From: Candidatus Latescibacterota bacterium
Lineage (GTDB): Bacteria > Latescibacterota > UBA2968
Assembly (NCBI GenBank): GCA_965204375.1
Contig: OZ241986.1
Location: 992,001 to 1,056,000 of the forward strand
Length of the DNA: 64,000 bases
Reading direction: 5' to 3'
In this document: one piece after another, positions 53,978 through 58,161 of the stretch
How the letters are laid out: every line of letters starts with the position of its first letter
Numbering within the stretch: position 1 is the first letter of the stretch
Program-made: the position numbers and the translations under genes
Notes under the pieces: generated by a model
Seen by the model: only the letters and a program-made list of their open reading frames with translations
Databases searched by the model: none
What the model was told of the DNA's origin: nothing

Positions 53978-54011
53978 ATATTGCGATTAAAAATATGTAT
54001 TTATACATATT
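53962..54011. promoter_or_regulatory. Candidate XRE operators
   Basis: Perfect palindrome AATATGTAT-TT-ATACATATT (53992-54011) and a second ATG-N8-CAT site (53964-53977). Confidence 0.55.
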
Positions 54012-54041
54012 ACACGTTTGCATTTTTGGATTGGAGCCGCT

Positions 54042-54842
54042 ATGAGAAAAATGTATTGGACAGATCTGAGAACTTCTAAAATTCAGTGTGCAAACGCAGA
54101 CGGTTCAGATGTCAAAGATCTCGTTACGACTGGATTGCGTATTCCAAATAGCATCGCCCTGGATGGAGACGGGGGTAAGATGTACTGGACGGACGCTGGA
54201 ACGTCCAAAATTCAGCGTGCAAACCTGGATGGTTCAGATGTCGAAGATCTCGTTGTTACCGATGTATATCTTCCAGGCGGAATGACGGTGCATGGAAAGA
54301 AGAAAAAAATATATTGGACAGACGCGGCCTGGGGAGAGACCGTGGAGTGCAAAGTACAACGAGCGGACCTGGATGGCTCTCATGTCGAAACTCTCGTTTT
54401 CACCGAAATGAGTATTCCCAACGGTATCGTCCTGGATCTGGACATGGGTAAGATGTACTGGACGGACTTAACTAAAATTCAACGAGCGAACCTGGATGGC
54501 TCTCATGTTGAAATCCTCGTTTTCACCGAATTACTGCCATTGGGGATTGCCTTAGACGCAGGTGAAGGGAAGATGTACTGGACGAACTATAAGGGTGCTG
54601 GCGTGTCTAAAATTCAACGAGCGAACCTGGAGGGCTCCGATGTTGAAGATCTCGTGACTGAAGGATTGGATCGTCCGTCGGGGATTGCTCTGGATGTCGT
54701 CAGAGGGAAGATGTACTGGGGGGACTATGACAACTATGGCACGGCTAAAATTCAATGTGCGAATTTAGATGGTTCAGATGTTGAAGATCTTGTTGCTACG
54801 GGATTGGATCGCCCATCGGGGATTTCACTGTGCTGCTTCTAA
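54042..54842 (+). CDS. LDL-receptor class B (YWTD) repeat beta-propeller protein
   Basis: Six KMYWTD...KIQRANLDGS.VEDLV...P.GIALD repeats. Confidence 0.88.
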   Translation: MRKMYWTDLRTSKIQCANADGSDVKDLVTTGLRIPNSIALDGDGGKMYWTDAGTSKIQRANLDGSDVEDLVVTDVYLPGGMTVHGKKKKIYWTDAAWGETVECKVQRADLDGSHVETLVFTEMSIPNGIVLDLDMGKMYWTDLTKIQRANLDGSHVEILVFTELLPLGIALDAGEGKMYWTNYKGAGVSKIQRANLEGSDVEDLVTEGLDRPSGIALDVVRGKMYWGDYDNYGTAKIQCANLDGSDVEDLVATGLDRPSGISLCCF

Positions 54843-54862
54843 TACCTCCACCTTTTCAAGGG

Positions 54863-54891
54863 TTGACTTTCGCTTTTGCATGGGCTATATT
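54863..54891 (+). promoter_or_regulatory. Sigma70 promoter of the candidate RNA
   Basis: TTGACT-17 bp-TATATT. Confidence 0.7.
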
Positions 54892-54897
54892 GGAACC

Positions 54898-55146
54898 ACA
54901 CAAGAAAGGAGGTGGTCGAATGAGTGAAATGACCAGTGGAGGTGGCTGTCGTTAGGTGCGCCTCTGCCAGGAGCGGGAATAGCATCTCGAATGGTAGCGC
55001 ACCTGGCAATCCAAGACAGCCATCGAACGGCTTGTTATCTGCCACATTGGCGATTTTTTGACAATCGCGAGGCAGAAACTTCCGTCAGACGATGCGCCGC
55101 ACGGAGATGGGTCGGTTTTCCGACACCCGACGTGCGGCGCTTTTTT
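54898..55146 (+). ncRNA. Unidentified structured RNA with extended SD and an 11-codon ORF (54920-54955)
   Basis: Own promoter and terminator. Stems GGTGGCTGTC/GACAGCCATC, GTTAGGTGCGC/GCGCACCTGGC, TCTGCC/GGCAGA, GCGATT/AATCGC. Confidence 0.65.
55094..55146 (+). terminator. Intrinsic terminator
   Basis: GCGCCGCACG...CGTGCGGCGC followed by TTTTTT. Confidence 0.8.
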
Positions 55147-55159
55147 GTGGGTTTCTAAC

Positions 55160-55187
55160 TTGACAAAATTGGATTATACTGTACCTT
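55160..55187 (+). promoter_or_regulatory. Probable rplM promoter
   Basis: TTGACA-16 bp-TACCTT. Confidence 0.45.
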
Positions 55188-55239
55188 CAAAGGCTTAAAA
55201 TACTTTGAGATTTCAAATATTTGGAGAGGAAGTGAAAAG

Positions 55240-55671
55240 ATGATGACACCGAGTGCCAAAAAAGGTGATGTTGAACACACCTGGTATGTCGCCGATGCAG
55301 AAGGCAAGATACTGGGGCGATTTGCCAGTGGCGTTGCCCGAATTTTGCGCGGCAAACACAAGCCTTTTTATACCCCCCATGTTGATACGGGGGATCACGT
55401 AGTTGTTATAAATGCCGAAAAAATTCAGGTGAAGGGCAATAACAAAGCCCAGCAGAAGGTTTATACGAGCTATAGTGGGTATCCCAGCGGGCTTAAGAAG
55501 CAAACGCTGGAAGACGCGCTGGAAAAGCGCCCCACATTTGTACTTGAGCACGCGATTCGGGGTATGTTGCCCCACAACAAATTGGGGCGACAGATGATCA
55601 AAAAGGTCCGTATTTACGCCGGGCCAGAGCACCCACACCAGGCTCAGTCTCCTGAGCCTATTGATTTATAG
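55240..55671 (+). CDS. rplM: 50S ribosomal protein L13
   Basis: [37 protein letters not shown]. Confidence 0.98.
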
Positions 55672-55684
55672 AGGAGGTGATTAT

Positions 55685-56080
55685 TTGGCAGTTGAACCAC
55701 TGAGTTCTGCTACGGGGCGTCGAAAAACATCGACGGCGCATGTGAAACTTTTCCCTGGAACGGGATCGATTGTTATCAATGGGCTTTCCGCGCTCGATTA
55801 TCTCAAACGGGAGACATTGGTGATGATTATCGAACAGCCCTTAGATGTGACCGAGACCCGGGGGACTTATGATATTGTTGCCAAAGCAAAGGGGGGCGGT
55901 TTGACCGGCCAGGCCGGCGCCGTGCGATTGGGTATTGCGCGCAGTTTGCAAAGCGTGAATACGAGCAATCACAAACCCCTGCGTCAGGCGGGCTTGCTCA
56001 CGCGCGATCCGCGCAAAGTGGAACGAAAAAAACCCGGGCAACCCGGCGCGCGCAAAAAATTCCAATTCTCCAAGCGTTAA
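55685..56080 (+). CDS. rpsI: 30S ribosomal protein S9
   Basis: TGRRKTS, GGGLTGQAGA, RDPRKVERKK, QFSKR. TTG start after AGGAGGTGA. Confidence 0.98.
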   Translation: MAVEPLSSATGRRKTSTAHVKLFPGTGSIVINGLSALDYLKRETLVMIIEQPLDVTETRGTYDIVAKAKGGGLTGQAGAVRLGIARSLQSVNTSNHKPLRQAGLLTRDPRKVERKKPGQPGARKKFQFSKR

Positions 56081-56102
56081 ACCAGAGTATTTTATCTGGA
56101 TA

Positions 56103-56176
56103 TCACATGTATCCTGATTGCTTCACGGGTGCCAGATGGCAATGCGGCAATATGAGGGATGCAGAGGACAAACCCA
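56103..56176 (+). promoter_or_regulatory. rpsB 5' leader (S2 autoregulatory, t44-like)
   Basis: TGTATCC/GGATGCA stem, CGGGTGCC..GGCA, GAGG..AAACCC (GGGU/ACCC pairing). Confidence 0.65.
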
Positions 56177-56192
56177 AAGTGCAGGAGGTGAC

Positions 56193-56951
56193 ATGGCTGT
56201 TGTTTCAATGAGGCAACTGCTCGAATCTGGCGTTCACTTCGGGCATCAAACCCGGCGGTGGAATCCAAAGATGCAGAAGTACATTTTTACAGAACGCAAT
56301 GGTATTTACATTGTCGATTTGCAAAAGACGCAGATGCAAATCGAAGCGGCATATCAGGCTGTGCGCAAGGCTGCCGAAACAGGCCAGCCGATTCTTTTTG
56401 TGGGTACGAAGAAACAGGCCAAAGACATCATTTCAGATGCCGCTGAACGCTGCGACATGTTTTTTGTCAACAACCGCTGGTTGGGGGGTATGCTGACGAA
56501 TTTTCAAACTATTCGGCAGAGCATTCGCCGCCTGGATACGCTGGATAAAATGGCCAGCGATGGCACATATGAGCAGTTGACCAAAAAGGAAGTGTTGCGT
56601 TTGGAACGCGAGCGCGATAAGTTGCAAAAATCCCTGGGCGGGATCCGCAGCATGGGGCGTTTGCCGGCACTCGTATTTGTCGTGGATACCAAAAAGGAAA
56701 AAATCGCAGTCGCCGAAGCGCGCCGCCTGGAAATTCCGCTTGTAGCGATTGTCGATACCAACTGCGACCCGGATGAGGTTGACCATCCCATTCCGGGCAA
56801 TGATGATGCAATGCGGTCCATTGCGCTGGTTACAAATTTGATGGCCGAGGCCGTGATCGAAGGGACAACTGTTCGACAGGATGAAGAAGAAGATGCCCCT
56901 GTGCCAGATGCAGGCCCTGAGATTACAGAAATTGATCCCAGCAATAATTAA
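56193..56951 (+). CDS. rpsB: 30S ribosomal protein S2
   Basis: [35 protein letters not shown]. Confidence 0.98.
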
Positions 56952-56974: not shown

Positions 56975-57574
56975 ATGGCTATTTCTGCAAAAATGGTTCA
57001 GGAGTTGCGTGCCAGAACCAATGTGGGCATGATGGATTGTAAACGAGCGCTTGAAGAGGCCGATGGCGTCATGGATAAGGCTGTTGAGTTGTTGCGTAAA
57101 CGGGGCATTGCCAAAGCCGAGAGCAGGGCGGGACGTCAGGCCAAAGAGGGAGCGATTGCGTCTTATATCCATGCGGGAAGCCAATTGGGGGTTTTGCTCG
57201 AGATCAATAGCGAAACCGACTTTGTAGCGCGTACCGATGAGTTCCAGACGTTTTCAAAAGACGTGGCTATGCACATCGCCGCCGCCGCACCTCTTGTTGT
57301 GAATCGCGAGGAAGTAGATGCCGAAATGCTGGAAAGGGAAAAGAATATTTATCGCGACCAGGCACTCAGCGAAGGCAAACCCGAGCACATCGTGGATCGA
57401 ATTGTGGAAGGCCGCATGGAAAAATACTATGAGGAAGTGGTCTTAATGGAACAGGCTTTTGTCAAAGATCCGGACAAAACTATTCAGGATCTGCACTCAG
57501 AATTGGTGGCCAAGTGCGGTGAAAAAATTACCATTCGCCGATTCGCCCGTTTTGTCTTGGGTGAGGAGAGTTAG
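56975..57574 (+). CDS. tsf: Elongation factor Ts (short form)
   Basis: GMMDCKRAL, NSETDFVAR. Confidence 0.97.
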   Translation: MAISAKMVQELRARTNVGMMDCKRALEEADGVMDKAVELLRKRGIAKAESRAGRQAKEGAIASYIHAGSQLGVLLEINSETDFVARTDEFQTFSKDVAMHIAAAAPLVVNREEVDAEMLEREKNIYRDQALSEGKPEHIVDRIVEGRMEKYYEEVVLMEQAFVKDPDKTIQDLHSELVAKCGEKITIRRFARFVLGEES

Positions 57575-57603: not shown

Positions 57604-58161
57604 GTGATTGATGAGATTATGGCTGAAGCGCGAACGGCTATGCAAAAGTCTATTATAGCCCTGCAAAATGAGATGGGTACAGTGCGAACGGGGCGTGCCA
57701 ATGCGCATTTGCTGGATCAAATTCGGGTCGAGTATTACGGTACACAGGTGCCGATTAACCAGGTCGCTACAGTGGGCGTGCCAGAACCGCGTTTGATCGC
57801 GCTTCAACCCTGGGATAAGTCGGCGATTCCACTGATTGAAAAGGCAATTCTGGAATCGAATTTGGGATTGACACCGACCAACGACGGTACGATTATTCGG
57901 TTGCCCATTCCGCAGTTGACGGAAGACCGCAGGCGAGAACTGGTGCGGGTGGTGAGGCAATATGCCGAAGAAAGCCGCATTTCGGTTCGCAATACCCGTC
58001 GCGATGCCAATGAACTCATCCGCGATGCGCAAAAAGAAGGCGAGATTCCCGAAGACGATGCCAGGCGCACAACAGATCGCGTGCAGGATTTGACCGACGA
58101 GTTTGTCGCAAAAATTGATGAGGTATTAAAAGAAAAAGAAGAAGAAATTATGGAAGTTTGA
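57604..58161 (+). CDS. frr: Ribosome recycling factor
   Basis: RTGRAN, YYG, P.LTEDRRRELV, RNTRRD. Confidence 0.97.
   Translation: MIDEIMAEARTAMQKSIIALQNEMGTVRTGRANAHLLDQIRVEYYGTQVPINQVATVGVPEPRLIALQPWDKSAIPLIEKAILESNLGLTPTNDGTIIRLPIPQLTEDRRRELVRVVRQYAEESRISVRNTRRDANELIRDAQKEGEIPEDDARRTTDRVQDLTDEFVAKIDEVLKEKEEEIMEV

Follow-up and report, generated by a model that had tools for sequence, protein, structure and literature searches.

The 64-kb stretch of Candidatus Latescibacterota DNA considered here (the window; contig OZ241986.1, from a 6.34-Mb genome) carries an RNA gene on its plus strand at 54863–55146, directly upstream of rplM (coordinates are positions within the window). The gene consists of a promoter, a predicted transcript of about 250 nt and an intrinsic terminator, and the transcript contains an extended Shine–Dalgarno sequence near its 5′ end (SD1), a small hairpin (P1), a mini open reading frame (mini-ORF) of 11 codons, a second Shine–Dalgarno-like motif (SD2), a long hairpin (P2) and a further hairpin (P3) (Table 1). 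Sequence comparison indicates that the locus is very probably a divergent homologue of the small RNA (sRNA) family Ms_IGR-5 (Rfam RF02471). Its features are best explained by a stand-alone, translated, ribosome-engaging RNA in which translation would toggle the main helix, a reading to which a probability of roughly 0.55 is assigned. An earlier note on this DNA, made from the letters of the sequence, had proposed an unannotated, independently transcribed, structured RNA gene, and promoter, terminator, folding energy and covariation bear this out; the unit, its reading frame, the ~85-nt hairpin and the second hairpin are present as the note described them.

Table 1. Features of the RNA gene and of the adjoining rplM region (positions in the window).
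Feature	Position	Strand	Remark
Sigma-70-type promoter: TTGACT 54863–54868, 17-nt spacer, TATATT 54886–54891	54863–54891	+	10 of 12 consensus positions
Predicted transcript start (A 54898) and conserved 5′ ACAC	54898–54901	+	7 nt past the −10 hexamer
SD1, AGAAAGGAGGTGGTC	54903–54917	+	complement of the whole free 16S 3′ tail; 15 nt, one G–U pair
P1, small hairpin with ATG in loop: 54911, 54913–54917 × 54931–54935, 54937	54911–54937	+	RNAalifold consensus
Mini-ORF MSEMTSGGGCR*: ATG 54920, 10 more sense codons, TAG 54953–54955	54920–54955	+	
SD2, GGAGGTGG, inside the mini-ORF and part of the P2 5′ strand	54938–54945	+	read from the sequence
P2, long hairpin; lower stem 54941–54949 × 55016–55024	54941–55024	+	RNAalifold
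P2 upper stem: 54965–54971 × 55002–55008, plus 54973–54975 × 54998–55000		+	RNAalifold
Internal-loop motif CAATCC, opposite the stop codon; G(C)GAAUYCC in other phyla	55007–55012	+	
P3, second hairpin, insertion specific to the window's order	~55029–55083	+	RNAalifold; several compensatory pairs
Intrinsic terminator: stem 55094–55103 × 55131–55140, apical stem, TTTTTT 55141–55146	55094–55146	+	
TTGACA, likely −35 of a separate rplM–rpsI promoter	55161–55166	+	not called by the promoter scan
rplM coding sequence	55240–55671		

The promoter is the sole promoter-like site found by a consensus scan of 54000–56200, and both of its hexamers are kept across the window's order in an alignment of relatives (19 rows; one of them, L032, diverges in the 3′ part). 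The transcript (a 258-nt stretch) folds at −116.8 kcal/mol, compared with −84.9 ± 4.6 kcal/mol for shuffled sequences (z = −7.0; 0 of 200 shuffles folds as well). RNAalifold with 18 relatives (74% mean column identity) recovers four modules, P1, P2, P3 and the terminator, with 58 pairs, 19 of which show compensatory changes. ACAC, SD1, the ATG, the stretch GACCAGTGGAGGTGRCTGT and the TAG are invariant or nearly so in the relatives; the 5′ ACAC is kept in all 18 and also opens the RF02471 consensus. SD2 is invariant save for one G/A position that covaries with its P2 partner, and at 54945/55020, inside SD2, RNAalifold finds a compensatory change from G–C to A–U. The stop codon of the mini-ORF is placed in the internal loop of P2, between the lower and upper stems. 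The terminator has a GC-rich stem in the single-sequence fold and compensatory changes in RNAalifold, and is kept in every constrained fold. An alternative fold suggested by the earlier note, in which GTGGT pairs with a 5′ ACCAC, did not hold up: the ACC precedes the predicted transcript start and is not kept among the relatives. The separate −35 element that the note assigned to rplM is supported by the alignment, in which 14 of the 18 relatives with an alignable 3′ part have a TTGA-type motif at that site, although the promoter scan did not call it.

Some details of P2 stand beside this consensus. For the window sequence itself, the single-sequence fold pairs GGTGCGC (54956–54962) with GCGCACC (54998–55004), which excludes the alignment-consensus pairing TGCCAGG × CCTGGCA (both within 54956–55008). 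Relatives differ by two-base indels in upper P2, so that no protein frame is conserved there on either strand. The TAG is directly followed by GTG (54953–54958), and the relatives have GTG or ATG at this place, so that a start-type codon is kept, with frames behind it that differ in length between relatives; this codon may serve for re-initiation behind SD2, or it may just belong to a stem. A reading of the GCGAAUCC loop as a K-turn or T-loop does not appear to fit the consensus of those motifs. Complementarity of the P2 3′ strand to 16S helix 45 was likewise considered and dropped, because this 3′ strand covaries with its 5′ partner (pairing GGUGACUG × CAGUCAYC).

The single 16S gene of the genome ends in ...GGATCACCTCCTTTCT. 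The 15-nt match of SD1, which the note had derived from the canonical tail, is therefore real for the host organism, whose own tail was read. When GGAGG-centred 15-mers on both strands of the genome are compared with this tail, full 15-position pairing is found at only two sites, SD1 and the antisense strand of the 16S gene, and the next-best matches reach 14 positions at one site and 13 positions at 11 sites. In the region 55672–55690, GAGGAGGTGAT stands before the likely start codon of rpsI (TTG near 55685) and gives a 13-position run against the 16S tail; long Shine–Dalgarno sequences are therefore common on the ribosomal protein genes of this genome, and SD1 is the extreme of its range, not a lone outlier. 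The ATG of the mini-ORF lies 7 nt 3′ of the GGAGG of SD1 (54908–54912), and the GGAGG of SD2 (54938–54942) lies 7 nt before the last sense codon, CGT (54950–54952), which is followed by the TAG. Because the two spacings are equal, a ribosome with the stop codon in its A site would have SD2 at an SD1-like initiation distance. Pairing of SD2 with 16S rRNA and formation of P2 are mutually exclusive, since SD2 overlaps the P2 5′ strand.

Ms_IGR-5 (RF02471, described by Rfam as "Actinobacteria sRNA") is the sole family that matches the region well among the eight Rfam matches listed for 54700–55350 at E up to 10. Its match covers the whole model at 54898–55047 with 39.1 bits (E = 2.2e-7), a score below the Rfam gathering cut-off of 45 bits, and is the only one in the genome (E = 5.1e-7 in the genome-wide search); at gathering thresholds the whole 64-kb window yields no Rfam match. 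Scores across Latescibacterota range from 30 to 47 bits, and a genome of the same taxonomic family as the window (G024) reaches 46.6 bits, above the cut-off. Among 20 loci scanned, the score steps down from Mycobacterium (176 bits) through Nocardia (133), Micromonospora (98), Kineococcus (85) and Cellulomonas (67) to two MAGs (metagenome-assembled genomes) of Blastocatellia, both still above the cut-off (52.3 and 49.6), and on to Acidimicrobiales (49), Zixiibacteriota (42.5), Syntrophobacter (33) and Latescibacterota (30.5). Seven of these 20 loci, including both from Planctomycetota and those from Heliobacteriaceae, Eisenbacteria and Sumerlaeota, have no Rfam match at E up to 0.01; at the remaining loci RF02471 is the only Rfam family matched. 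At E up to 1 it also matches the Caulobacter and Thermus control genomes, and these matches are judged to be chance because none of the 14 controls matches at E up to 0.001.

Window element and Ms_IGR-5 share a 5′ ACAC followed by the extended Shine–Dalgarno sequence GRAAGGAGGUGGUC (window positions 54898–54917 occupy model positions 1–20 with posterior "*"), a small hairpin around the start codon, and a GAGGUGRCUG × CAGYCACC helix with a GAAUYCC loop before the 3′ strand (a helix of our own reading, absent from the Rfam structure line). In both, a start codon behind SD1 opens a short frame that closes at a stop 3–6 nt past the second motif (offset 4 in the window), and both have their own promoter and terminator and are present in a single copy per genome. 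The window element differs in that its host lies outside Actinomycetota, its reading frame, shifted by one register, ends in GGGCR* where Ms_IGR-5 has EVAxx* and comprises 11 codons instead of the modal 12, the extra hairpin P3 precedes the terminator, and the element has a fixed place upstream of rplM. The novelty that the note saw in this RNA is thus partly retained: the match to RF02471 means that the kind of RNA is already catalogued, and what is new is a branch that falls below the Rfam cut-off and lies outside the family's stated phylum. The note's statement that the RNA is none of tmRNA (transfer-messenger RNA), 6S RNA, signal recognition particle RNA and RNase P RNA agrees with 0 genes found by ARAGORN and 0 gathering-level Rfam matches in the window.

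A covariance model built from 35 sequences of other phyla (R1), in which only P1 and the closing helix of P2 are given as structure, matches the 64-kb window once and at full length, at 54895–55027 (60.1 bits, rough E = 1.7e-15, a score that is circular in part). R1 aligns the P1 helix as RNAalifold does and 54941–54950 with 55015–55024. The P2 closing helix is about 97% paired in the 35 sequences, compared with 22–53% when the partner is slid, and two of its pairs change on both sides. The SD2 motif is also present in the RF02471 consensus, as GAGGUGgCUG, and the CAATCC-type loop motif belongs to the consensus of RF02471 as well as to that of R1 and is found in almost every cross-phylum sequence listed. 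P3 is missing from most members in other phyla, where the terminator directly follows P2. In Actinomycetota (for example L037, L038, L042, L045 and L048), the loop of the post-P2 hairpin often has GUCC, or GGUCCC in Acidimicrobiales, which may pair with GGAC or GGGAC of the P1 3′ strand as a pseudoknot or an alternative pairing.

The family appears to be widespread yet patchy. Of 41 genomes from the window's order, 40 have a BLAST match to 54860–55160, and the remaining genome is 92% complete; there is one match per genome, save short second fragments in three genomes. One such fragment (G017:C1:4613936–4613970; 35 nt) is 94% identical to the part from SD1 to the ORF start, and in another genome an RF02471 match lies away from the motif-bearing element (G039:C1:4400352–4400529); both may be second copies or remnants. 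A search of 185,579 species genomes for AAGGAGGTGGT and GAGGTGRCTG with a gap of 12–42 nt gives at least 119 loci. Among the matches listed, most are from Actinomycetota, and others are labelled Acidobacteriota (Blastocatellia, Terriglobales), Planctomycetota, Latescibacterota, Zixiibacteriota, Sumerlaeota, Eisenbacteria, Heliobacteriaceae and Syntrophobacter; the element of the Latescibacterota record (L066) has the same form as in the window's sister family. Of 168 genomes from the window's phylum, 52 contain the exact motif; all 52 belong to the window's order (30/30 and 21/22 genomes of its two families, plus the window's own genome), and the motif is missing from all 115 genomes outside the order. 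A search with RF02471 at E up to 0.001 agrees, matching 40 of 151 genomes of the phylum and 0 of 102 outside the order. R1 matches 73 of 151 evenly drawn Actinomycetota (67 of 145 without six genomes flagged as unpublished, all six of which match), with a single copy in all carriers but one, and at least 10 of 121 Acidobacteriota, a minimum, since long insertions lower R1 scores. Genomes from ten other lineages have one copy each (10/10). The control genome of the actinobacterium Corynebacterium glutamicum has no RF02471 match at E up to 1, and some actinobacterial lines have apparently lost the RNA.

The mini-ORF is the feature in which selection on the frame can be separated from selection on the peptide. 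In 118 of 119 loci among the matches listed, a start lies 7–14 nt past the GGAGG of SD1 and a stop 3–6 nt past SD2. The frames of these 118 loci are 11–18 codons long (mode 12), their starts are ATG (57), TTG (39), GTG (14) and CTG (8), and their stops are TAG (103), TGA (8) and TAA (7), so that variation at the triplet after SD2 stays among stop codons. The distance between SD1 and SD2 takes 13 values from 31 to 53 nt that are not multiples of three apart, with the search pattern allowing distances down to 23. An ATG/GTG/TTG frame is present in 113 of 122 distinct sequences (the exact-motif matches listed minus duplicates, plus the window's relatives), compared with 20.4 ± 4.1 (maximum 36) in 200 spacer shuffles, counts that overstate the number of independent observations because the sequences are related. 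Within the window's order, 65 loci comprise 25 distinct variants, all of which keep the ATG site, the 11 codons and the TAG; the variants contain no in-frame stop, compared with 47 and 28 stops in the other two frames, and no indel in the 9-nt variable segment, whereas the other loops of the order are full of indels. These patterns support the view that the extreme Shine–Dalgarno sequence and the 11-codon ORF are selected features and not accidents.

The same data bear on two rival explanations. If the RNA were an ordinary untranslated base-pairing or protein-binding sRNA, the Shine–Dalgarno motifs, the ATG and the stop would be only structural nucleotides; SD2, the stop and nearby codons do lie in helices or conserved loops, and M. 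smegmatis IGR-5 was reportedly obtained, judging by the title of Li et al. 2013, from a pull-down with heterologous Hfq. Structural nucleotides would not readily account for a post-SD2 position that, among the matches listed, changes only among TAG, TGA and TAA, for matching-frame starts at several times the chance number across 13 spacer lengths, for the loop segment free of indels across the order or for an SD1 that matches the whole 16S tail. In addition, the Ms_IGR-5 homologues of M. abscessus and M. smegmatis are reported to carry ribosome footprints (PMC4974804). An untranslated sRNA is therefore considered unlikely. The other rival is that the RNA is the messenger of a functional 11-residue micropeptide, MSEMTSGGGCR, whose synthesis the structure merely controls. 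Frame, start and stop are strictly kept in the window's order, the C-terminal SGGGC[SR] is common to an Eisenbacteria MAG, and dual-function sRNAs are known. However, the homologous nucleotides are read in other registers in other phyla: among the matches listed, 93 sequences have the register EVAxx* (GAG GTG GCT ...), 16 sequences from Latescibacterota and Eisenbacteria have GGGC[SR]* (GGA GGT GGC TGT), and four, from Planctomycetota and one other lineage, have RWLxx* (AGG TGG CTG). Three registers across lineages mean that the peptide is not conserved, and this shift of register from phylum to phylum is the strongest single argument that the frame is selected and the peptide is not. Moreover, residues 2–4 vary freely and non-conservatively (S/N/I/T, E/D/K/I and M/S/E/Q/T/K/L), and the conserved residues are encoded by the P1 and P2 strands, in which six third-codon positions are nearly invariant and thus point to selection on the RNA. 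A functional micropeptide, one half of the dual sRNA/micropeptide gene that the earlier note had considered, is accordingly the least probable of the explanations weighed here.

The position of the gene invites a further explanation, a cis-acting leader or attenuator of rplM–rpsI in which translation of the leader frame would decide whether the terminator is passed. At 16 of 19 loci examined in the window's order, the next gene downstream on the same strand is rplM (of the other three, one is on a contig that stops short and two are followed by a different gene), and the upstream gene differs: that of the window is found at none of the other loci examined. Contigs spanning the element and rplM also occur in three RNA runs. 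Against these points, the terminator remains intact in seven of seven relatives when pairing is forbidden either across the region that a ribosome at the stop would cover or across the entire 5′ part, and no shared antiterminator appears; the conserved TTGACA follows the terminator; and RF00555, which we take to be the Rfam L13 (rplM) leader, is absent from the eight matches for 54700–55350 at E up to 10. Beyond the order, flanks are unrelated: at ten loci from other lineages, Pfam families in the 83 surrounding stop-to-stop frames (130 aa or longer) reveal no shared neighbour, and the gene downstream of the element in a Mycobacterium MAG is convergent. A leader function is therefore very unlikely, and the tie to translation genes suggested by the note holds only within the order and is absent from the ten other lineages. 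The fixed place upstream of rplM–rpsI in the order may reflect co-regulation with ribosome synthesis, or some read-through.

The element of the Mycobacterium MAG follows an Aminotran_4 gene and has a THAP4-like heme-binding gene facing it; going by the M. tuberculosis gene order, this place appears to be distinct from the region of ncRv10810c. That leader element, mentioned in a 2026 preprint on Rv0810c, was considered and set aside, since it apparently belongs to a different intergenic region. Another preprint places M. smegmatis IGR-5 between MSMEG_5794 and MSMEG_5795, lists it as validated and uncharacterised, and reports that nicotinamide adenine dinucleotide (NAD) captureSeq recovered it with an A as first nucleotide (bioRxiv 10.1101/2021.12.14.472595); the predicted start in the window is an A as well. 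IGR-5 corresponds to ncMSMEG15794c (PMC10454040), and transcription of homologues is reported for Streptomyces lividans and S. avermitilis (PMC8079986, PMC8780764). Titles of the literature on anti-Shine–Dalgarno small RNAs with short ORFs in Actinobacteria include none on Ms_IGR-5, and guessed M. tuberculosis names (ncRv0812, ncRv10813 and similar) led to no literature.

The reading of the locus as a stand-alone, translated, ribosome-engaging RNA builds on the homology, the architecture, the conservation of the frame and the uniqueness of SD1, and it can be put as a sequence of events. The RNA would be made from its own strong promoter and ended at its own terminator. SD1 at the 5′ end would capture a 30S subunit and melt P1, whose loop holds the ATG. 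The ribosome would then translate the 11-codon frame, probably also in the window's organism, the peptide itself not being what matters. In doing so it would have to unwind P2, whose 5′ strand includes SD2, and the ribosome terminating at the UAG could hold SD2 and keep P2 open. The RNA would thus switch back and forth between two forms, one closed and one opened by the ribosome, with the conserved strand CAAUCC...CAGCCAUC free in the latter, and in this way would report on, or tie up, initiating ribosomes. Of the note's suggestions, a ribosome-capturing or ribosome-stalling RNA is still the one that fits best.

Several points weigh against this reading. Retention of the terminating ribosome at SD2 is suggested by the spacing alone, and folds of seven relatives with imposed constraints give no conserved alternative structure that could be the output of the open form. 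P1 shows no covariation within the order or in the cross-phylum set; inside the order this is because its pairs are invariant. The Rfam score of the locus lies below the family's cut-off, the conservation of SD1 and SD2 in the cross-phylum set and part of the R1 score are circular, as the set and the R1 seeds were collected by a window-derived motif (the Rfam match and the BLAST-collected relatives are free of this), and the 122 sequences behind the ORF counts come mostly from Actinomycetota. The passages naming the family in the literature consulted assign no function to Ms_IGR-5 in any organism. Expression is a further point. Part of the stretch is present in 13 runs recorded as RNA, and four metatranscriptome runs from four studies were compared with the window as contigs. 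One of them has a 197-nt contig exactly on 54898–55094 at a depth of 76, with contigs of the flanking genes at depths of 3–14; this contig begins at the predicted transcript start, which is a weak hint of that start and of expression. In the other three, contigs run from the upstream gene through rplM. Such contigs cannot show the start, end, strand or level of a transcript, and DNA may be present in such libraries.

Known systems resemble the RNA in part. Like tmRNA (SsrA), it would be a stable small RNA with an internal short frame translated to a defined stop; unlike tmRNA, it has no tRNA-like domain, and it has its own Shine–Dalgarno sequence and ATG instead of a resume codon. STAB-SD, a 5′ stabiliser reportedly described by Agaisse and Lereclus in 1996 for the cryIIIA mRNA of Bacillus thuringiensis, is similar in being a near-perfect Shine–Dalgarno sequence a few bases from the 5′ end, and SD1 could likewise bind the 16S tail and shield the RNA from decay. 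STAB-SD is said to lie in the leader of a long mRNA with no start codon after it, whereas the window RNA has a conserved start, frame and stop after its Shine–Dalgarno sequence and no downstream cistron. Leader-peptide attenuators of the textbook trpL and ermCL type share a short frame before an intrinsic terminator and coupling of ribosome position to folding; in the present case no antiterminator was found, another promoter follows the terminator, other phyla have no same-direction gene downstream, and the frame lacks a run of regulatory codons. The frameshift Shine–Dalgarno sequence of prfB and translational-coupling junctions, again as given in textbooks, also have an in-frame Shine–Dalgarno-like motif a few bases before a stop, at a place where it can pair with the 16S tail of a ribosome arriving at that stop, but the window RNA has no conserved second frame to shift into or re-initiate on.

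The surroundings of the RNA gene offer some observations of their own. The upstream gene (54018–54842) encodes a protein of repeats with the motif KMYWTD...KIQRANLDGS...LV, which matches itself at a second offset in tblastn; the repeats resemble YWTD beta-propeller repeats. Contigs from the RNA libraries have joints that skip 138 or 269 bases inside this gene, as expected if the number of repeats varies between strains. Farther downstream, judged by their translations, an EF-Ts-like gene (56975–57574) is followed after 30 bases by a ribosome-recycling-factor-like gene (57604–58161), with no uridylate kinase gene between them; in many bacteria the uridylate kinase gene sits between these two genes.

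Ms_IGR-5, which Rfam lists as actinobacterial, is now seen in Latescibacterota and eight other lineages, and for annotation this means that the Rfam cut-off misses the present branch of RF02471. The combination of a conserved complement of the 16S tail, a frame with a free peptide and SD2 before the stop points to a function on the ribosome itself and not via a peptide or a nearby gene; since cultured carriers exist (M. smegmatis, Streptomyces), the idea is directly testable. A broader proposal, which is doubtful at present, is that the family is a trans-acting ribosome-capture RNA that would be to ribosomes what 6S RNA is to RNA polymerase: it would dock 30S subunits on SD1, park the terminating ribosome on SD2, and buffer or report free ribosomes, the conserved strand of the opened form would act on a partner, and in the window's order the RNA would be wired to rplM–rpsI. 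If ribosome capture is indeed its role, it would be that of a single-copy RNA kept in at least nine bacterial lineages.

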